IMG/VR virus record: IMGVR_UViG_3300032050_000010
DNA from: a virus
Strand: one strand, 5' to 3'
DNA: 64,000 nucleotides
Part shown: in pieces, positions 28,689-56,018 of the stretch
Layout: every line of letters begins with the position of its first letter
Numbering within the stretch: position 1 is the stretch's first letter
Position numbers and translations under genes: made by a program
Notes under the pieces: model-generated
What the model saw: only the letters and a program-made list of their open reading frames with translations
Database searches by the model: none
Told to the model about the DNA's origin: nothing

Positions 28689-28716
28689 GTGCGGGCCCAG
28701 CGCAACATGGTATAAT
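28689..28716 (+). promoter_or_regulatory. Putative promoter GTGCGG-N16-TATAAT upstream of the sigma gene
   Basis: Extended -10 TGGTATAAT; same -35 family as other sites. Confidence 0.6.
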
Positions 28717-43253: not shown

Positions 43254-43484
43254 GTGACAGGGCAGAAGAAGAGAACAGGGCGAAGACGACTTGCTGTGGG
43301 TGATCTTGTTGAACACATCAATAAGCAGCATCCAGATCATGGTAAGATCGGCATGGTTACCCGAGTCACTGACCAGACACAGATGATGAGAATAGCTTTT
43401 GTGATGGTTGAAGGCACAGAGCGTGTCTGGTTCATGGGTGACTTTGTGAAACTGAAGGGAGGCGAAGATGATGAAGCCGTCTGA
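43254..43484 (+). CDS. Small SH3/KOW-like protein
   Basis: LAVGDLV...GKIGMV. Confidence 0.5.
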   Translation: MTGQKKRTGRRRLAVGDLVEHINKQHPDHGKIGMVTRVTDQTQMMRIAFVMVEGTERVWFMGDFVKLKGGEDDEAV

Positions 43485-47636: not shown

Positions 47637-47866
47637 TGGGCAAGATGGTGACACACGCGATCACAGTCAAAGGGATCGTCTACGGCACGATGCACGTCAC
47701 ATGTTCAGAGGATGAGCACCGGCCTGAGAAGCTAGGTGACGAGGTCGATTGGGACTGGGATAGCGTCGAGATGGTCGAAGTCGTCGACAGTGAGATCATT
47801 GATGGGTGGGAAGAGCCGGACGAGGAGGAGGAAGATCAGTCGACCGTGAACGGGGGTGCCAAGTGA
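47636..47866 (+). CDS. Acidic hypothetical protein
   Basis: Coupled ORF. Confidence 0.45.
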   Translation: MGKMVTHAITVKGIVYGTMHVTCSEDEHRPEKLGDEVDWDWDSVEMVEVVDSEIIDGWEEPDEEEEDQSTVNGGAK

Positions 47867-48270
47867 TGGTCCTGATCGCGTCGCTCCTCGGGTGTCTGAC
47901 AACGTCTCACTACAACGCTCGTGCTGAGGTGCGCTCTGTGACGTCAGGCGGCGGCTCACGAGAGTTCTACGTCGCAGCCGACATGTTCTGCGGTCCCGCT
48001 CTCTTTCCGATGGTGAGGAGTGGGCAGTGGCATCCCGTCACGATCAGGATCATGAGGTGTGAGATCGTCTCGTCGGGCAAGGCGACCAAGACGCAGTGCG
48101 ACGCTGTCGCTGACACTGAGACACTGGGCATCGCGTCAACCGCGGCAAACGGGGATCGATTCAAGATCACGAGCGGAAACGTGATGTGTCCCTACCTCAA
48201 GCTCGGCGGCATGGACGTGTCGGGCTTCACGCCCTACGATCCTGAGACAGCGAGCGACGTAGACTTTTAG
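47866..48270 (+). CDS. Putative lipoprotein
   Basis: MVLIASLLGC lipobox-like. Confidence 0.4.
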   Translation: MVLIASLLGCLTTSHYNARAEVRSVTSGGGSREFYVAADMFCGPALFPMVRSGQWHPVTIRIMRCEIVSSGKATKTQCDAVADTETLGIASTAANGDRFKITSGNVMCPYLKLGGMDVSGFTPYDPETASDVDF

Positions 48271-48410
48271 GTGGAGGACAGGACAGCATGACCAGTGTAC
48301 TATGAGGAGGTCAGGCGCGCGGCGATGGGAAACGGGGAGCTGTTCCACGTCGCGGCCTTCGTCGCAATCATCGACGGATGGGAAGAAGATCCTGAGTAGG
48401 AGAGCCTGAC

Positions 48411-49086
48411 ATGAAGGCAGGTGACATCGTCAAGCTGAACAGCTGGTTTCATCAAACTGTCTCAGTATTCCCAGAGCCTAATCCACAGACAACAATCGGT
48501 GACATTGAGTATCCAAGAGGGACGATTGCTCTAATTCTCGAGGTTCTCGACAGTCACGAAGATGACGGCCCAAGCATGAATACGTACATGCGTGTTCTTG
48601 TCGGAGGAAAGGTGGGTTATGTCCGTGCATATTCCTGCGAGGAGATCAAGTGAACGTGGGTGACCTGGTCAGGTTCTGGACACCTGCGGTCCCAAAGAGC
48701 CTGCAACACAATGGGATCATCATAGATGTCACTCACGAGAATGTGGGCGGTCTAAAGATGGGGAGCATGTACCACGTGCTCACATCCCGTGGGCAGATCG
48801 TGACAATGACTGTGGGTGGCCTGGAGCTCGTGTCACCCGTGCAAGACAACTTGAGCGTGGTATGATGCAGCTGTGAGGAGAGGCAATGAAGCCCGGTGAC
48901 CTTGTGCAATACACACTACGGCGAAGAGGTTCGACTGCGCCCTACCCAATCGGGATCCTGCTTGAGATCCGGCCTAAGTCGCATCCACTCATTCGGGAAC
49001 GCGAGCACGACTACATCGTCCTAATCGGTGGCGAGACACGAACTACGACACGACGATATCTAAAACCGATCGAGGAGGCACAATGA
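48411..49086 (+). repeat. Three tandem MxxGD(L/I)V mini-genes (48411-48653, 48650-48865, 48886-49086)
   Basis: MKAGDIV, MNVGDLV and MKPGDLV starts; SH3-like pattern. Confidence 0.7.
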
Positions 49087-49757
49087 AGATCTGGCATTTG
49101 AGCGACACTCACATGAACCACGACCAGCTCGTCATTCCCGATGGTATCGACATGGTGATCCACAGCGGAGACGCCTCGAACTGGCGTGACCCGTACCGTA
49201 ACGAGTCAGAACTTCGTGCCTTCATCGACTGGTTTGCTACCCTGTCGATTCCCCACAAGATCTTCGTCCCAGGAAACCACGACACGTCCCTTGAGAAGGG
49301 CCTGATCACGCGTGAGCTGATTGAGCACCGTGGGATCCACCTCCTCATCAACGAAGAGAAGACGATCGAGGGGCTGCGGATCTGGGGAAGCCCATTCACG
49401 CCACGCTACGGCGACTGGTCATACATGCGGGACCGTGGGACGATCAACCGGCTCTGGGATGAGATCCCGGAGAGCCTCGACATCCTCGTCACGCACGGCC
49501 CACCCTACGGCGTCCTCGACGCAACCTACACCCATCACAACAAGGTGGAGCTTGTGGGTTGCAGTGCACTCCGGAAGCGGGTCGCGAAGGTCCCGCCCCG
49601 GTTCATGCTCTTCGGGCACGTCCACTCAACGGATGACATCCGCAATGCGGGAACGCGGACGGTGTGCGGGCTCCCTACGATCTTCAGCAACGGATCCTGC
49701 TGTGACGACGGACGGATGGGTGTGGTGACGAGCCACGGGAACGTGTTGGAAGTGTGA
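49083..49757 (+). CDS. Metallophosphoesterase (MPPED-like)
   Basis: SDTH, HSGD, GNHD, THGPP, FGHVH. Confidence 0.9.
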   Translation: MKIWHLSDTHMNHDQLVIPDGIDMVIHSGDASNWRDPYRNESELRAFIDWFATLSIPHKIFVPGNHDTSLEKGLITRELIEHRGIHLLINEEKTIEGLRIWGSPFTPRYGDWSYMRDRGTINRLWDEIPESLDILVTHGPPYGVLDATYTHHNKVELVGCSALRKRVAKVPPRFMLFGHVHSTDDIRNAGTRTVCGLPTIFSNGSCCDDGRMGVVTSHGNVLEV

Positions 49758-49792
49758 TAGGATAGCCTATTTAATTGCTAGAGGATGATGCA

Positions 49793-50530
49793 ATGAGATC
49801 AGGTTTCGGCAAAGGTTTTCAAGGACCTAATGTGGGCCTCACGGCAGGTTTCAACTTCGGGTTCAATCGGCCCGATCAACTCAGCACGTCTGGCCTCATG
49901 CTACACCTTGATGCGTCAAATGCTCTCAGTTACCCCGGATCAGGTGCAACCTGGTTCGACCTCGCGACAGATCCTGCAGTGAACAACGCAACGCTCATCA
50001 ACACACCCACTTTCTCAACTGACAAGGGCGGAAGCTTCAACTTCGCGAAAGCCTCATCCGAGAGTGCCACAGTCTCAGGAACCGGGCTCGTTCCACAGAC
50101 TGCCTACACGAAGGCAGTCTGGTTCAACCTTACCGATCTGGTGAGTGACAACAACCTCGTAAGCTCCGAGACGGGTGGTCACTTCATGTATTTTGCAGGT
50201 ACGAACCGCCTCTACTCAGGCCACACAAACTGGGCCGTCTTCTCTGCATATCCGTCAAGCCGGACTTTCTCTGCAGGTGTGTGGTACTTTGCAACTCTCA
50301 CTTTCAACACGACCGACGGGATGACGCTCTATGTCAATGGTGCTTTCGACAGCTCCTACACGGCGAACAAGGCTGCCCACGGTGGCGACGGGTCGGTGAA
50401 CATCGGTCGTTTTGGCGTCGGTAACTTCCTCAATGGCAACATCGCGCAGGTCCTCACGTACAACAGGTCACTTACATCGACCGAAGTTGCTGACCTCTTC
50501 AACATCACTAAGGGAAGATTTGGTATCTGA
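49793..50530 (+). CDS. LamG/concanavalin-like domain protein
   Basis: GLMLHLDA...SYPGSG.TW.DL, W..., LYVNG, GNIAQV..YNRSL. Confidence 0.85.
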   Translation: MRSGFGKGFQGPNVGLTAGFNFGFNRPDQLSTSGLMLHLDASNALSYPGSGATWFDLATDPAVNNATLINTPTFSTDKGGSFNFAKASSESATVSGTGLVPQTAYTKAVWFNLTDLVSDNNLVSSETGGHFMYFAGTNRLYSGHTNWAVFSAYPSSRTFSAGVWYFATLTFNTTDGMTLYVNGAFDSSYTANKAAHGGDGSVNIGRFGVGNFLNGNIAQVLTYNRSLTSTEVADLFNITKGRFGI

Positions 50531-50592
50531 TTAATAATTTGGTTGAACATCTGCACAATCAAAAGCTAAGATAAACTAAATTAGGAGTAAAA

Positions 50593-51291
50593 GTGTACCC
50601 TCAAGATGAGTTTGTCAAGCTGCTAAATGATCTTCCAGACTGGTTTGTTGAGAAAGTTGTAAGCTTCGGCCAGTCTAGTAAGATTACGGCAGGCAATGAG
50701 CAAGAGGTTATTATAGAGAAACTTTTTAATAACCTAGGTGTCCCAGGAATTTCAGCTACGTGCGGTGACGCAATAGACAATACAACACGTGTCAAGAAGT
50801 CACACGTAGATGTTGCTGTTTTCCATAACAATCGGCCTATTATTGCAATTGATGTGAAAAATGGTGGTGCAAATGGCACGGAATCTGCAGGATCTCGTGC
50901 TAATGATGTTGAAGCACGTGTAGAGGGAGCAGCCCAGAAAGGATATGAATACTATGTCTATCTCTTTACACCGCAGTCGGCATGCAATACTCTTGATCAC
51001 GTTGACATTGCAATGAAGAGATTGGCAACCTCAACGATCAGTTGTAAGTTGATTACCGCGAGCTTAAAAGAGAATGACCCTAACCTGCAGGTATTGTGCA
51101 ATGTAATCGCTCAGAATACTGGCGTAAGCGTTGACACAACGATGGTCATGAATGTCTACAATAAGTTGAATGTGCAGCCAAGTCTCAAGGATAGAATTAA
51201 AAGCAAGTCAGAGAAAGTCTACCGTACTGCACTTGAAAGAGAAGAAAAGAAGATAACTAGATCAGGCAAGAAAGCTTCGCGCAATCGTTGA
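50593..51291 (+). CDS. Putative PD-(D/E)xK restriction endonuclease
   Basis: E..., HVDVAV....IAIDVK motif; AT-rich; adjacent to MTase. Confidence 0.45.
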   Translation: MYPQDEFVKLLNDLPDWFVEKVVSFGQSSKITAGNEQEVIIEKLFNNLGVPGISATCGDAIDNTTRVKKSHVDVAVFHNNRPIIAIDVKNGGANGTESAGSRANDVEARVEGAAQKGYEYYVYLFTPQSACNTLDHVDIAMKRLATSTISCKLITASLKENDPNLQVLCNVIAQNTGVSVDTTMVMNVYNKLNVQPSLKDRIKSKSEKVYRTALEREEKKITRSGKKASRNR

Positions 51292-51339
51292 TAAATTAAT
51301 AAACATCTCTAACCCATCTATAATTGTCTAGGAGACAAG

Positions 51340-52167
51340 ATGAAAAAGCTTTTTAAGTGGCCAGGCGGTAAATCATCTGAGATCAAGCAGATCACAGCCT
51401 TGATGCCAACCTCATATGATAGGATCGTTGAACCTTTTGCAGGTTCTGCAGCGCTGTCATTTCACTTAGAGCGACCTGCCATTATAAATGATCTTGATGC
51501 GCAGGTGATGAATTTTTACGCCTGTCTCCAGAAAGATTGGCAGCAGTTGCACAGCCTTATTGAACAAGACAGGAAGTGTCCATACATGCTAAACAGCGAT
51601 CCTGCCAGAGAGACAACACGATCACTTGAAGACGCATACTATGCTGCTAGAACACGTCTAAATTCTGCAAAGTCTCTTAGCTTGTCTAGTCTTGACTTTC
51701 AATCGGCATCTGACTTCTATGTGACGCGCGCGCTCTCGTTCTCAGGCATGATCAGAAACTCACCTAAAGGTGGGTCGAATGTCCCTTATGGGTGGTATAA
51801 GGACTTTAAAAATAGCTTAAATGTTAATGTGAGCAATCTTATTAGCTCTTGGACGATCTTAAACGGATCTTATAGCGCCGTGTCTGCACACCTCACTGAT
51901 GGTGATTTTGTGTTTCTAGACCCGCCATACCGCAGCAGAGCAGGCTATCAGACACCCGACTGGAACGATGTTGACCATCAAAATTTCATTGACTGGACAA
52001 AGTCTTTAAAATGTAAGTGGATGATTGTGCACACAGACGATGATCTATATCGTGCAGAATTTGCAAGCTATAAGATCATCACAAAATCACACATGTATTC
52101 TCAGAACTTCATGGGAAGAAATAATTCTGGTTCTAAAGTAGATCATATTTACATTCTCAACTATTAG
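51340..52167 (+). CDS. DNA adenine methyltransferase (D12/Dam class)
   Basis: KWPGGK, EPFAGSAA, IND, NVPYG, FLDPPY, ILNY. Confidence 0.92.
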   Translation: MKKLFKWPGGKSSEIKQITALMPTSYDRIVEPFAGSAALSFHLERPAIINDLDAQVMNFYACLQKDWQQLHSLIEQDRKCPYMLNSDPARETTRSLEDAYYAARTRLNSAKSLSLSSLDFQSASDFYVTRALSFSGMIRNSPKGGSNVPYGWYKDFKNSLNVNVSNLISSWTILNGSYSAVSAHLTDGDFVFLDPPYRSRAGYQTPDWNDVDHQNFIDWTKSLKCKWMIVHTDDDLYRAEFASYKIITKSHMYSQNFMGRNNSGSKVDHIYILNY

Positions 52168-52193
52168 AACTTCATAAGTCCAGAATGCAACTC

Positions 52194-52222
52194 GTGCAAC
52201 CCGACTCACCATAGGGTATAAT
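52194..52222 (+). promoter_or_regulatory. Putative promoter GTGCAA-N17-TATAAT heading the mini-gene array
   Basis: ATG 52229 is 6 nt downstream of the -10 box. Confidence 0.65.
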
Positions 52223-52228
52223 ACTACC

Positions 52229-52606
52229 ATGGTCAAGAAAGGCTACACTGCAGTTCCCAAAGGCTCTCGCGCAGTCGCGTGGACACCCCGGCGTTGCAAC
52301 AAGAACAGAGTAGTAATCCCACGTGGGGTAAGTGGTGTAGTGACGGGTAAGAGTAACGTCCGTGATTGCAACTGGACCAGGGCCGTTATCGGGGGTGTGG
52401 TCCACACTCTCCATCCTTGGGATTGGGACTTCACACCCATCAGAGTAGGCGAACTTCGCCGCTGGAAGGATGGACGGGCCGGAACATTCTTGGTTGTCAG
52501 TATCGAATCACTGTCATCTTGCCATTGTCTCGGGGACGGCAATGTCTTTGGGACGACCTGCAGGTACCTCGAGGACCTCACGGAGGTGATCAGTGAAACC
52601 CGGTGA
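52229..52606 (+). CDS. Array leader gene (tandem SH3-like units)
   Basis: Internal IRVGEL; ends EVISETR like array members. Confidence 0.55.
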   Translation: MVKKGYTAVPKGSRAVAWTPRRCNKNRVVIPRGVSGVVTGKSNVRDCNWTRAVIGGVVHTLHPWDWDFTPIRVGELRRWKDGRAGTFLVVSIESLSSCHCLGDGNVFGTTCRYLEDLTEVISETR

Positions 52607-52772
52607 TCTCGCAGTCGTCAAGTGCAAGCGGGTTCCCAATCTTAGCGGGAAGGTCGTCCTCCTTGTCGAGTGGCAGAAGCCCCCAGCAGCATTTCAGGGT
52701 AGTCGCTGGCTCTGCCTTGTTGATGGGACAGCACGATCCATCCAGTCAGGCTGGTTGAAGGAGATCAAGTGA
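52593..52772 (+). CDS. MKPGDL mini-protein 1 (59 aa, not in ORF track)
   Basis: MKPGDLAVVK...WLKEIK*. Confidence 0.75.
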   Translation: MKPGDLAVVKCKRVPNLSGKVVLLVEWQKPPAAFQGSRWLCLVDGTARSIQSGWLKEIK

Positions 52773-53005
52773 AGCCCGGCGATCTTCTGCGAACGATCCG
52801 TGGCGGGTTCATCCTACCGGACCCGGAGTACTGGACGAACGACGAGACCGGGACGTCCCTCCCGCTCGCTCGGATGGGCGAGCTCGTCCTCGCCGTGAAG
52901 TTCGACGGCTCTGACAGCGGGAGCTGGGTGAGGGTGATCCATCCCACCCACGGCATCCGAGATATCCTGCTGGGTGATCTGGAGCCTGTCAATGAAACCA
53001 GGTGA
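52769..53005 (+). CDS. MKPGDL mini-protein 2
   Basis: MKPGDLL...EPVNETR*. Confidence 0.75.
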   Translation: MKPGDLLRTIRGGFILPDPEYWTNDETGTSLPLARMGELVLAVKFDGSDSGSWVRVIHPTHGIRDILLGDLEPVNETR

Positions 53006-53210
53006 TCTCGTCACGCTCAACCACCACCGCCGCTATACTGGAATCGACATGGCCGATGGTTACTTCATCGATATCCCAGGCGGTGCCATTGGCGTCTACA
53101 TGGGACTTACCACCGATCGTGAGTACAACATCTATGATCTGGTCCTCACTAAGGGCAGGTTGGTGAAATGCGCCCGGAGCGTCTGGAGTGTCCTCGATGA
53201 AACCCGGTGA
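52992..53210 (+). CDS. MKPGDL mini-protein 3
   Basis: MKPGDLV...VLDETR*. Confidence 0.75.
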   Translation: MKPGDLVTLNHHRRYTGIDMADGYFIDIPGGAIGVYMGLTTDREYNIYDLVLTKGRLVKCARSVWSVLDETR

Positions 53211-53394
53211 CCTTGCCCGTCTCAAGGATATCGGCATCCACAGCGGAGAGATTGTGATGATAGTCAAGGTGCATCCCTGGCGTGATACTCCCAATGCCTT
53301 CGGTTCGTGGATGACAGTTGACTTCATGTTCGACGGACAAGTCGTTGAAGAATGCGACTCGAGCTTCCTGGAGGTGATCGATGAAACCCGGTGA
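53197..53394 (+). CDS. MKPGDL mini-protein 4
   Basis: MKPGDLA...EVIDETR*. Confidence 0.75.
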   Translation: MKPGDLARLKDIGIHSGEIVMIVKVHPWRDTPNAFGSWMTVDFMFDGQVVEECDSSFLEVIDETR

Positions 53395-53581
53395 TCTCGT
53401 TCAAGTCATAAAGGGCGTCCATGGTCAGGGTGAGATCGGAGTCGTCCTGGGCGAGGTCGAAGAGTCACGTAACTGGGACTTGTCCTGTCCTCTGCTCGAG
53501 GTTCTCTTTCACGATGGTCCTCGTGACTGCCACCCGTCGAATCTCCAGAAGCCTGATGGTAGGACCCGGAGGCGTGAATGA
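53381..53581 (+). CDS. MKPGDL mini-protein 5 (KOW-like)
   Basis: MKPGDLVQVIKGVHGQGEIGVV. Confidence 0.75.
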   Translation: MKPGDLVQVIKGVHGQGEIGVVLGEVEESRNWDLSCPLLEVLFHDGPRDCHPSNLQKPDGRTRRRE

Positions 53582-53805
53582 ACCTGGGTGATCTTGTTAG
53601 GCTCGACATTCCCGGCCAGCGTGCTCACGGAAAGATCGGCATTGTCGTGGGCAAGGAGCTAAAAGCCACCTACGATTGGATGCGGGACCACATGGGTCAA
53701 CCTGTCAAATCTTTCAGCTACGAGGTCATGGTTGGAACTGAGGTCTGGCGAGTGGGTTATAATGAACTCCTAGCGGAAACGGAGTGGGACGATGAAGCGC
53801 GGTGA
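53578..53805 (+). CDS. MKPGDL mini-protein 6
   Basis: MNLGDLV...HGKIGIVV...DDEAR*. Confidence 0.75.
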   Translation: MNLGDLVRLDIPGQRAHGKIGIVVGKELKATYDWMRDHMGQPVKSFSYEVMVGTEVWRVGYNELLAETEWDDEAR

Positions 53806-54040
53806 TCTCGTTATCCTGACAAACTGTAACACTAGGTTCGAGGGTTCGTACGGTTACGAATTCGGTTGTAATCCCAAAGGTGACTTAACGCTAAAAGACG
53901 AAGTCTGGGTTCCAAACGGAACTATCGGAATGTACTGTGAGGATCCCAAGGACGACGGAGGAAAGTTCGGTGTCCTCGTCCACGGTCGCCTCCTCTGGTT
54001 CGACCAGATCGATTCGAGGGCCATCAATGAAACCGGGTGA
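53792..54040 (+). CDS. MKPGDL mini-protein 7
   Basis: MKRGDLV...INETG*. Confidence 0.75.
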   Translation: MKRGDLVILTNCNTRFEGSYGYEFGCNPKGDLTLKDEVWVPNGTIGMYCEDPKDDGGKFGVLVHGRLLWFDQIDSRAINETG

Positions 54041-54227
54041 TCTAGTTCGCATAAACCGTAATATCCGCAATGAGAAGCCAGAGACCCGCGCCATCCAAGA
54101 AGGTGCAGTTTTCATGGTTGTCGGACCCGACAAGACATTCTCACGGGATGTTGTCTACATCATGACACCCTTCGGTCTGCAAAGTATTCACGTCTGCTAC
54201 CTGGAAAAGCTCGATGAAACCCGGTGA
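54027..54227 (+). CDS. MKPGDL mini-protein 8
   Basis: MKPGDLV...LDETR*. Confidence 0.75.
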   Translation: MKPGDLVRINRNIRNEKPETRAIQEGAVFMVVGPDKTFSRDVVYIMTPFGLQSIHVCYLEKLDETR

Positions 54228-54408
54228 CATCGTCCGTTTCAAGAGTGGCACGCCCATCTTCAAGCGTCAGGGTGAGACACTCGCGCTCATCACTCGGGTC
54301 GTTCCCCTGGATGAAGGAAGAACAACTTACCTCTGTCTTCTCATGCCTACCGGCGAAGTGAAGGCGAGAAGGATCGAGGATGTCGAGGTGGTCATTGAAG
54401 CCGGGTGA
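54214..54408 (+). CDS. MKPGDL mini-protein 9
   Basis: MKPGDIV...EVVIEAG*. Confidence 0.75.
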   Translation: MKPGDIVRFKSGTPIFKRQGETLALITRVVPLDEGRTTYLCLLMPTGEVKARRIEDVEVVIEAG

Positions 54409-54628
54409 TCTGGTCATCGCGAAGGCAGCCAAGGCCAAGAGGCGGGATCCTCCTCCCGCAATCATGCTCTACAACTGGAGGACGAATGTCTACCACCCGT
54501 GGAAGAACGGAAATCTAGGCATGATCATCGATCTCGACCCGAAGACGGAAGGTGTGATCGTCATGGCTGATGGGAGCGTGGGCTGGGTGTCGCAGGTGAT
54601 CATCGAGGTGGCTGATGAAACCGGGTGA
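54395..54628 (+). CDS. MKPGDL mini-protein 10 (TTG start)
   Basis: (M)KPGDLV...EVADETG*. Confidence 0.7.
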   Translation: MKPGDLVIAKAAKAKRRDPPPAIMLYNWRTNVYHPWKNGNLGMIIDLDPKTEGVIVMADGSVGWVSQVIIEVADETG

Positions 54629-54863
54629 TCTGGTCACAATCCGCAGGATGAACCTCTCCAATACAGCTCGCATCGCCTACATCGAAGTCTACGATAGGTA
54701 CGACCACATCGCAGTCCCCCACAAAAAGAAGTGGGAACACGGTGAGGTTGGCATTCTCCTTGAGGGACGGGACGACAAGCGGGAGATGGTCCAAGTCCTC
54801 CACTGCGGACGGGTAGGGTGGGTCGACGAAGAAATGCTGCGGGTGATCGATGAAGCCGGGTGA
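54615..54863 (+). CDS. MKPGDL mini-protein 11
   Basis: MKPGDLV...RVIDEAG*. Confidence 0.75.
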   Translation: MKPGDLVTIRRMNLSNTARIAYIEVYDRYDHIAVPHKKKWEHGEVGILLEGRDDKREMVQVLHCGRVGWVDEEMLRVIDEAG

Positions 54864-55041
54864 TCTCTGCATGATCGTGCATCCTGCCAGGCGTGAGTGG
54901 AGCGACTCCGACGTCTGCATGATCCTCAGGCCCGTTAGTCATGAGGACGGCATCGACATCTACTCACACTGCGACTGGTGGGTCATGTGGGACGGGCGTG
55001 AGACGGCCTGGGCAAAGACGGATCTGGAGCCCATCGAATGA
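54850..55041 (+). CDS. MKPGDL mini-protein 12
   Basis: MKPGDLC...DLEPIE*. Confidence 0.75.
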   Translation: MKPGDLCMIVHPARREWSDSDVCMILRPVSHEDGIDIYSHCDWWVMWDGRETAWAKTDLEPIE

Positions 55042-55325
55042 ACTTCCTCCGCAGGGTCTATCGCTGGCTCTACGTCCGCGTCAAAGGTCACTATCCGCTC
55101 GGGTCTCTCGTCAAGTTCAAGCCGGGTATCGGATTCGACGGGATCTACTGGAAGTCTCCGGGAGACCCAAGATTTCACGCGATCGGGTTGGTGATCGATG
55201 GGTGGCGGAAGAATGTACACCCGTTGCCGTCGGGTGTGTTTGCTGAGGGAAGTGTGGTGATCTTCGACGGTGAGCGATACGACATGGAGAACTGGGAACT
55301 CGAACCCATCGATGAACCCGTGTAA
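55038..55325 (+). CDS. Terminal array member with N-terminal extension
   Basis: YPLGSLVKF...IGLVID...ELEPIDEPV*. Confidence 0.6.
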   Translation: MNFLRRVYRWLYVRVKGHYPLGSLVKFKPGIGFDGIYWKSPGDPRFHAIGLVIDGWRKNVHPLPSGVFAEGSVVIFDGERYDMENWELEPIDEPV

Positions 55326-55348
55326 ATGGGCGCGACATGTGGTACAAT
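55320..55348 (+). promoter_or_regulatory. Putative promoter GTGTAA-N17-TACAAT
   Basis: Extended -10 TGGTACAAT. Confidence 0.6.
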
Positions 55349-55796: not shown

Positions 55797-55805
55797 GGAG
55801 ACAAC

Positions 55806-56018
55806 ATGAGTATCCCATACATCGATTCCAGCCCGCTCTGGGTCTATTGCGACCCAGTGGATCACAATCACGTCTACTGGATCGTCACCAATGACGATGA
55901 CGGCGAGCTTGCTCGAGCAATGTTCTACAGTCTCGACGACGCTAAGGAATACCTCCACAAGGTGAAGGGCATGTCACTCGATGACATCAAGATCGTCACA
56001 GGCGAGGAGGAAGAATGA
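55806..56018 (+). CDS. Hypothetical protein
   Basis: SD GAGGAG. Confidence 0.5.
   Translation: MSIPYIDSSPLWVYCDPVDHNHVYWIVTNDDDGELARAMFYSLDDAKEYLHKVKGMSLDDIKIVTGEEEE

Follow-up and report, generated by a model that had tools for sequence, protein, structure and literature searches.

A chained array of small, divergent paralogous genes with a dual-coding junction in an uncultured freshwater jumbo phage

The 64,000-nucleotide (nt) stretch analysed here (the window) corresponds to positions 79711-143710 of the 163,948-bp IMG/VR record IMGVR_UViG_3300032050_000010, whose source is an uncultured freshwater jumbo phage that is not T4-type and possesses a DnaE-type polymerase. At 52229-55325 the window holds what is probably, though by no means certainly, a single operon of twelve old and divergent paralogs of one SH3-like protein together with related first and last genes, chained by a short junction at which recombination swaps units. 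The evidence for this is comparative and computational.

All coding between 52229 and 55325 lies on the plus strand and forms a probable operon of ~3.1 kb, comprising a first gene of 125 aa (u0), twelve units of 59-82 aa (u1-u12, spanning 52593-55041) and a last gene of 95 aa (u13). The heads of u1-u12 all read M/V/L-K/N-x-G-D-L/I, with GTG starts in u1 and u2 and a TTG start in u10, and all twelve match one profile hidden Markov model (HMM) of the family with E-values from 3e-7 to 5e-22. The genes are given below with their counterparts in two relatives, namely G1 (IMGVR_UViG_3300047564_006327, ~90% nt identity) and L050 (a 122.5-kb contig of the Joint Genome Institute, 94-98% identity); two units, u7 and u8, were modelled with AlphaFold2.

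52229-52606, plus strand: u0, 125 aa, first gene; ends SETR before its stop; 14-nt overlap with u1
52593-52772, plus strand: u1, 59 aa, GTG start; family HMM E-value 5e-13; absent from G1 and L050
52769-53005, plus strand: u2, 78 aa, GTG start, 4-nt overlap with u1; E-value 2e-9; absent from G1 and L050
52992-53210, plus strand: u3, 72 aa; E-value 7e-17; absent from G1, 82% identical ortholog in L050
53197-53394, plus strand: u4, 65 aa; E-value 1.5e-18; orthologs 95-98% identical in G1 and L050
53381-53581, plus strand: u5, 66 aa; present or absent among relatives, absent from G1 and L050
53578-53805, plus strand: u6, 75 aa, head MNLGDL, 4-nt overlap with u5; E-value 3e-7; orthologs 88-96% identical
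53792-54040, plus strand: u7, 82 aa, head MKRGDL; modelled; head stub alone left in G1
54027-54227, plus strand: u8, 66 aa; modelled; unrelated unit in its place in L050
54214-54408, plus strand: u9, 64 aa, head MKPGDI; E-value 1e-11; orthologs 98% identical in G1 and L050
54395-54628, plus strand: u10, 77 aa, TTG start; E-value 3e-15; 74-78% identical orthologs in contigs L059-L061
54615-54863, plus strand: u11, 82 aa; E-value 5e-22
54850-55041, plus strand: u12, 63 aa, ends LEPIE before its stop, 4-nt overlap with u13; E-value 5e-18
55038-55325, plus strand: u13, 95 aa, last gene; distant family member with an internal GSLVKFKPG motif; E-value 0.003-0.012

The C-terminal half of u0 resembles the family, its HMM match being weak (E-value 0.005-0.007 in relatives), and orthologs of u0 head the arrays of G1 (87% aa identity) and L050 (66%). 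Orthologs of u13 were found in L050 as well as in two further contigs, G2 and L063.

Among the junctions preceding u1-u12 there are ten with a 14-nt overlap (ATGAARCCNGGTGA) and two, u1/u2 and u5/u6, with a 4-nt overlap, as the original prediction, made from the letters and an open reading frame (ORF) listing, had described for its twelve 59-82 aa ORFs with M-K/N-x-G-D-L/I heads; a third 4-nt overlap is formed by u12/u13. There are thus ten stop/start overlaps of 14 nt and three of 4 nt, with the Shine-Dalgarno inside the upstream ORF. In the 14-nt overlap the upstream frame reads E-T/A-R/G-stop while the downstream frame, +1 relative to it, reads M-K-P-G-D, and codons 4-5 of the downstream gene (GGT GAY) hold the upstream TGA stop. 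Mean pairwise nucleotide identity among units is 0.66 at the junction (-13 to +17), compared with 0.31-0.34 in the 30 nt either side; exact identity between units extends to at most ~17 nt at a junction, and the unit proteins are mutually 18-34% identical. An 18-nt junction motif (<=2 mismatches) has nine copies in the 163,948-bp record, every one on the plus strand and within the array, and the reversed pattern used as a control gave no match in the record. A repeat search picks up 10-11 junction copies. A copy of the repeat family D3 is found at 55308-55323, within the end of u13. The final 18 nt of u13 (55308-55325, ATCGATGAACCCGTGTAA) resemble a decayed junction, namely the head motif minus one base, and a unit once located downstream may have left this footprint when it was lost.

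The junction is under a constraint that is visible at synonymous sites. In a sample of 119 unique units with 99 14-nt junctions, taken from this genome and the fetched loci, the fourth codon Gly is GGT in 87 of 99 junctions as against 32% in unit interiors (p 1e-30), and in 75 of 87 once the units matching the search pattern are left out (32%, p 1e-25). The tail codons behave likewise in the subset that excludes search-pattern matches (28-41 codons per amino acid): Leu is CTG in 61% (19% in interiors, p 1e-6), Glu is GAG in 95% (65%, p 9e-6), Val is GTG in 87% (23%, p 1e-13) and Ile is ATC in 93% (68%, p 3e-4). In the head, the Lys, Pro, Asp and Leu codons are free to vary at the third position. 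Jointly the preferred L-E-V-I codons CTG GAG GTG ATC spell CTGGAGGTGATC, which is Shine-Dalgarno-like, being the complement of the 16S 3' end. Tails other than LEVI often use TCG AGG AGA, likewise Shine-Dalgarno-like in being purine-rich and AGGAG-like. Since the bias towards the Shine-Dalgarno and the TGA is strong, synonymous sites are conserved here, contrary to one of the conditions that the original prediction had set for its refutation, and, as judged from codon choice, the junction is conserved beyond amino-acid constraint and selected at the nucleotide level. The original prediction that each tail encodes the next Shine-Dalgarno, and that the next Gly-Asp codons supply the stop, is supported by this bias.

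As the 14 nt are read in both frames, the ETR/EAG tail is a by-product of the MKPG head of the next gene. Family C-termini do track the next head, DETR, NETG and NEAR going with MKPGD and NESR with MKVGD, and u4, which ends EVIDETR in the window, ends EVIDEPG in G1 and L050 where u6 follows. In operation, the codons of the last beta-strand (L-E-V-I) of each unit would form the Shine-Dalgarno of the next, ribosomes would terminate 11-13 nt past the next start codon, and the genes would be translated as a chain.

Close relatives differ from the window by whole units. The order in G1 is u0-u4-u6-(u7 head stub and foreign gene)-u9, and that in L050 is u0-u3-u4-u6-u7-X-u9-u10-u11-u12-u13, X being an unrelated 63-aa family member that replaces u8, with the replacement spanning 54047 to 54210. 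Units u1, u2 and u5 are missing from both relatives and u3 from G1. At the nucleotide level, all array breakpoints between the window and these two relatives fall inside the head motif. At the u0/u4 joint of G1 the u0-type GTG start is retained and u4 sequence begins after GGTGAY, while at its u4/u6 joint the switch occurs at ATGAA, turning the 4-nt overlap into one of 14 nt with the change of the u4 tail from EVIDETR to EVIDEPG. More distant contigs hold other adjacencies, such as a u12-like unit followed by a u4-like unit (G2), u7 followed by a u12-like unit (L062) and u13 followed by a u10-like unit (L063), and u10-like units have other partners again in L059-L061. An assembly artefact was rejected as the source of these orders, exact junction identity being at most ~17 nt and alternative adjacencies recurring in independent assemblies.

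In place of u7 and u8, G1 (L045:160-1315, minus strand) has an AT-rich gene of ~340 aa that is rich in Gly and Ser and follows a 28-aa stub retaining the MKRGDIV head and a GTGCAA motif; this looks like a moron-type insertion at a junction.

Exchange inside units also appears to occur. Comparison of u3 (52992-53210) with L050:4975-5193 reveals a divergent N-terminal half and 30 identical C-terminal residues, a mosaic that implies an allelic recombination breakpoint inside a unit. Synonymous divergence between the window and L050 runs from 0.02 to 0.45 per unit, with u0 saturated, and taken with u3 this unevenness indicates mosaic histories.

The same kinds of change were recovered from natural populations. 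At least half of the sampled words of the array are held by 17 DNA runs (freshwater, lake, estuary and other), each from a different study except for two estuary runs that share one, and one of them possibly being the source sample. Logan contigs from X3, X4 and X5, three DNA runs that each belong to a different study, were placed on the array at 90% likeness. A joint 53380->53578, lacking u5, is present in X3 and X5, and since another X3 contig keeps u5, one sample contains the two forms together. A joint 54040->54211, with u8 replaced, and a joint 54005->54846, from u7 to u12, are each present in X3 and X4, while X5 has a back-joint 54205->53378 (u8 to u5) that could equally be a reordered array. 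Among the best-supported rows, to which these counts are confined, 15 of 20 joint ends (p 2e-7) and 17 of 19 loose ends (p 2e-10) lie within 22 nt of a unit start, against 20% expected. The insertion, deletion and shuffling bounded by junctions that had been proposed is therefore seen in both settings, with units gained, lost, replaced and reordered in relatives and populations, their order and number varying with breakpoints in the motif.

The dN/dS ratio (nonsynonymous to synonymous divergence), computed with the dual-coding ends excluded, is 0.10 for the window against L050 (575 codons) and 0.20 against G1 (282 codons), and on these values the units are real genes under purifying selection. 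Every window unit has an external ortholog that is 57-99% identical and a best in-window paralog that is 24-37% identical; with orthologs far closer than paralogs there is no sign of recent amplification. This bears on the names that the original prediction had given to the array. A gene accordion was rejected, as near-identical neighbours are lacking and the best in-window paralogs reach just 24-37%. The term hypervariable does not hold either for orthologs under purifying selection, and a diversity-generating retroelement was likewise rejected, there being no match to reverse transcriptase PF00078 in the record, orthologs of 95-98% identity and a dN/dS of 0.1-0.2.

The units are one family of small proteins with no counterpart in Pfam or PHROGs. 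A profile built from the twelve units was searched against 1.84 billion proteins and returned 217 clusters at E<=1e-3 (representatives at 50% identity, from metagenomes), nearly all of them standalone proteins of ~55-90 aa with a few of two domains, and the MKPGDL head is present in 84 of the best 150 clusters. A second database gave 158 proteins, all of them unnamed or 'hypothetical' and without a Pfam domain. Pfam and PHROGs, searched with the units and 101 family members, gave matches at chance level only, and no Pfam hit came near the gathering threshold, the best being of the order of SH3_CYT4 (E-value 0.026) and PsaE (0.0098). A search for related loci with u11 found two distant loci only. 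All five related viral contigs examined hold arrays, these having 5-19 members. A literature search on motif strings, tandem arrays of SH3-like phage genes, the family and the junction found no relevant paper.

A second subfamily of ~84 aa, starting MKPGDLIEWVYK, is arrayed in L038:2747-3870 as well as in L026, L014 and L031 (IMGVR_UViG_3300014838_000014 and 3300037099 contigs). Its neighbouring copies are much more alike than the window units, which suggests recent tandem duplication in that subfamily.

With regard to fold, the two modelled units are SH3-like barrels as predicted by AlphaFold2, in keeping with the SH3/KOW-like barrels first proposed for the array. The model of u8 has a mean predicted local distance difference test score (pLDDT) of 87 and forms a five-stranded barrel, for which the best Foldseek matches in the PDB are the SH3 domains of Pex13, Abl and spectrin with template modelling (TM) scores of 0.65-0.74. 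That of u7 (82 aa, pLDDT 90.3) has a u8-like core to which the loop joining strands 1 and 2 adds a long hairpin, and its best structural matches are SH3b, KOW, NdhS, PsaE and YorP at Z 6.5-7.8 (VIA). Both models place head GDLV and tail LE.I in strands of the barrel, confidence is lower for the last five residues, and length variation in the family is located in the beta1-beta2 loop, equivalent to the RT-loop. Fold searches of BFVD, the ESM Atlas and the PDB found no close neighbour with a functional annotation; the neighbours in the first two were uncharacterised proteins of phages, DUF3148 and DUF4926. The units share with SH3-like small barrels (SH3, SH3b, KOW, Tudor, NdhS/PsaE and the Bacillus subtilis prophage protein YorP) the five-stranded barrel and long first loop (TM 0.65-0.78, Z 6.5-7.8) but differ from them in matching none of the SH3, KOW and Tudor profiles of Pfam. 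The fold is a very common one, and likeness at this level does not imply a function in common. The units are probably a repertoire of binding modules, a view held at low confidence and the least certain part of the explanation; binding specificity would then sit in the loop of variable length that joins strands 1 and 2, with host or phage macromolecules as targets. The roles raised by the original prediction, as host-binding or anti-defence effectors, are putative.

As to how units are exchanged, the 20-30-nt junction is the only nucleotide homology between units, and recombination between junctions, either within a genome or between co-infecting relatives, would remove, insert, replace and reorder whole units from start codon to start codon. 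The products would survive because a stop, a Shine-Dalgarno and a start result whichever tail is joined to whichever head. General or microhomology-mediated recombination is, we infer, the simplest account, to which survivorship would add. A more ambitious version, in which selection has made the junction a universal adaptor and the units form a recombinase-free cassette pool whose translation signals double as the recombination site, is a tentative proposal that we regard as rather doubtful.

A number of points weigh against the favoured account. Breakpoints at junctions could in part reflect survivorship, as only start-to-start events leave genes intact, so that the junction need not be a preferred site of exchange; several population joints have short sides (18-29 nt) at 90% likeness and may come from other organisms, and at the u5 event the microhomology amounts to as little as 5 nt. 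Translational coupling by termination-reinitiation is something we infer from the geometry only, and at 12 junctions with a non-GGT Gly the upstream frame continues for 35-230 nt, so that a stop in the head is not obligatory. In regard to binding, the structures closest to the units are small barrels of a generic kind and uncharacterised proteins of phages, and unit pI is spread from 4.5 to 9.9. Lastly, RNA run X18 has small contigs on u0, u4, u6 and u11 only, which may be DNA carry-over and were not used as evidence of transcription.

An ordinary tandem paralog family, in which head and tail conservation reflects protein constraint and descent and unit differences are random indels filtered by viability, would have nothing special at its junctions, and there is something to be said for it: the GDLV head and the LE.I tail are structural strands in both models, terminal units without a downstream family member retain LE.I, the flanking accessory region has indels between relatives that are unrelated to the motif (47814-48367, 49750-52189 and 55800-56004), and tandem arrays of similar genes have been reported in jumbo phages G and 121Q (PMC5646251). 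It does not account for a synonymous bias exactly towards GGAGGTGATC and the TGA stop next to free neighbouring synonymous sites, nor for AGGAG-like purine-rich codons in non-LEVI tails, and all array breakpoints in three close genomes, along with most joint and loose ends elsewhere, are at the junction. We consider it unlikely. The proposal that units are subunits of one hetero-oligomer, or are fused into multi-SH3 chains by +1 frameshifting or readthrough at CGG-TGA, receives the least credence of all. It would draw on the +1 relation of the next frame, on a Shine-Dalgarno-like element upstream of the stop that loosely recalls the prfB frameshift site, and on chained coupling, which favours equal stoichiometry. 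In prfB, however, the Shine-Dalgarno lies 3 nt from the stop as opposed to ~13 nt here; a start codon and a Shine-Dalgarno are present for each unit separately, the 217 clusters of the family consist of standalone proteins (55-90 aa) except for a few with two domains, and the gain and loss of units between near-identical phages speaks against an obligate complex.

An integron-like, site-specific cassette system, with a recombinase from the unassembled half of the genome or from the host excising and inserting unit circles, is in our view very improbable; the original prediction had likened the array to an integron. The units do act as discrete start-to-start cassettes behind one promoter, the record is ~49% complete by CheckV, so genes may be missing, and cassettes of T4-type phages bounded by promoter-early stem-loops (PeSLs) form mini-circles (PMC2839356). 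On the other hand the 163,948-bp record has no match to tyrosine integrase PF00589, which matches in 14 of 14 control genomes, and no attC-like inverted repeats occur at the junctions, where direct repeats only were found, the sole inverted pairs being three weak ones >1.3 kb apart, with no hairpin. In addition, the crossover varies within the motif (one at ATGAA and one near GAY-CT), unlike a fixed cleavage site. The integron reading was therefore rejected, there being no integrase and no attC-type repeats in this ~49%-complete record. The array resembles integron arrays in its promoterless units in one orientation, its common promoter and its variable content between close relatives, but differs in having neither an IntI-type recombinase nor attC repeats in the record and in having mutually homologous units; integron cassettes are not all homologous to one another.

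The closest published system, by analogy, is the modular shuffling of PeSL cassettes in the hyperplastic regions of T4-type phages (Arbiol et al., 2010; PMC2839356). The PeSL is an intergenic motif of ~100 bp with a sigma-70-like promoter and a terminator stem-loop, flanking unrelated ORFans (PMC2839356). In both systems a short conserved boundary sequence carries expression signals, relatives differ by the insertion, deletion and replacement of whole small non-essential ORFs and a moved gene stays expressed. The joint of the array differs in being 20-30 nt long, read by both genes, confined to one paralog family and devoid of promoter or stem-loop, and it is found in a phage with a DnaE-type polymerase instead of T4-type phages. 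The mini-circles, moreover, belong to the T4-type system. Jumbo phages G and 121Q possess tandem arrays of more than 30 similar genes (Hua et al., 2017; PMC5646251), which like the present array are long head-to-tail runs of one small gene family in a large phage. The genes there are very similar through tandem duplication, in contrast to the 24-37% paralogs and 57-99% orthologs here, and no conserved dual-coding junction or unit exchange is described for them (PMC5646251).

Movement of phage accessory genes at short conserved boundaries is known. Where PeSLs are intergenic boundaries, the boundary here is overlapping code that carries a protein end, a ribosome-binding site and the start of the next protein, so that any unit could follow any other and still be translated. 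What is specific to the present case is that synonymous sites were tested quantitatively, that breakpoints between near-identical genomes were resolved to the nucleotide, that one sample is polymorphic and that the setting is a freshwater phage with a DnaE-type polymerase. If the junction is the exchange site, the phage population would keep a shared and reshuffled library of small binders without a dedicated recombinase; if the universal adaptor reading were true, phages would assemble custom SH3-like arrays, for example of host-takeover or anti-defence binders, with expression unbroken. A family of more than 200 clusters that lies outside curated databases and recurs in unrelated large phages is a reasonable target for screens of host takeover and counter-defence.

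Transcription of the array would begin at the following site, which is promoter-like, conserved and separated by 6 nt from the first ATG.

52194-52222, plus strand: promoter-like site heading the array, GTGCAA, 17-nt spacer and TATAAT, with the ATG of u0 lying 6 nt beyond the -10 box

The hexamers and spacing of this site are kept in G1 and L050 though the DNA upstream differs, which suggests that the site is one promoter and that the first gene is probably leaderless or nearly so. The site was not listed in a generic sigma-70 scan. The original prediction had placed one promoter before the array and another after it: the heading site is conserved in two relatives, and the trailing candidate (TGGTACAAT near 55344) shows only a resemblance to the consensus. 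No internal promoter or terminator signals above chance were found in the array and none at the junctions. The pattern GTGCnn, 16-18 nt and TAYAAT has six occurrences in the record, confined to the plus strand, at window positions 28689, 42453, 46089 and 52194 and genome positions 55581 and 148299. An ATG follows 6 nt after the -10 box at both 52194 and genome 148299, which suggests leaderless transcripts.

The family extends beyond the array, its HMM finding 17 members in the window and 21 in the whole record, with those elsewhere in the window as follows.

43296-43484, plus strand: single dispersed family member; HMM E-value 3e-7; ortholog in G1
48411-48653, plus strand: first member of a satellite cluster of three; E-value 5e-11; cluster conserved in G1 and L050
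48650-48865, plus strand: second member of the cluster; E-value 3e-5
48886-49086, plus strand: third member of the cluster; E-value 4e-11

The HMM gave no match at E<0.1 for 24415, 34883, 44481, 46257, 60105, 60349 and 62781. Beyond the window there are four further members, at genome 148121-148696 and 160033-160197, three of which are clustered.

The gene content of the window includes the DnaE-type polymerase, which has <30% identity to those of the nearest cultured phages, as well as GroEL and a helicase. The array had no megablast match in 50,697 GenBank phage records, and a scan of genome contigs with the 24-nt consensus junction found one 1.3-kb contig of a metagenome-assembled genome, which gave no host clue. 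There is no obvious host flank in the record.

Directly upstream of the array promoter lies a 2.4-kb insert of low GC content (~45%; 49750-52189) that is absent from G1 and L050 and contains the following genes.

49775-50530: 251-aa ConA-like/Laminin_G_3 protein
50593-51291: 232-aa protein with no family match
51340-52167: Dam-like DNA methyltransferase, just upstream of the array

The frequency of GATC over the whole record is 9.6 per kb compared with 3.9 predicted from base composition, with avoidance nowhere, an abundance that fits a phage-encoded Dam-type methyltransferase. The junctions have up to two GATC sites each, and the idea that GATC is special to the array was rejected, the site being equally frequent genome-wide (9.6-11.8 per kb). 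The record also has a cluster of seven tRNA genes outside the window, at genome 152469-156102, these being Arg-CCT, Gly-TCC, Asn-GTT, Arg-TCT, Ile-TAT, Tyr-GTA and Phe-GAA.

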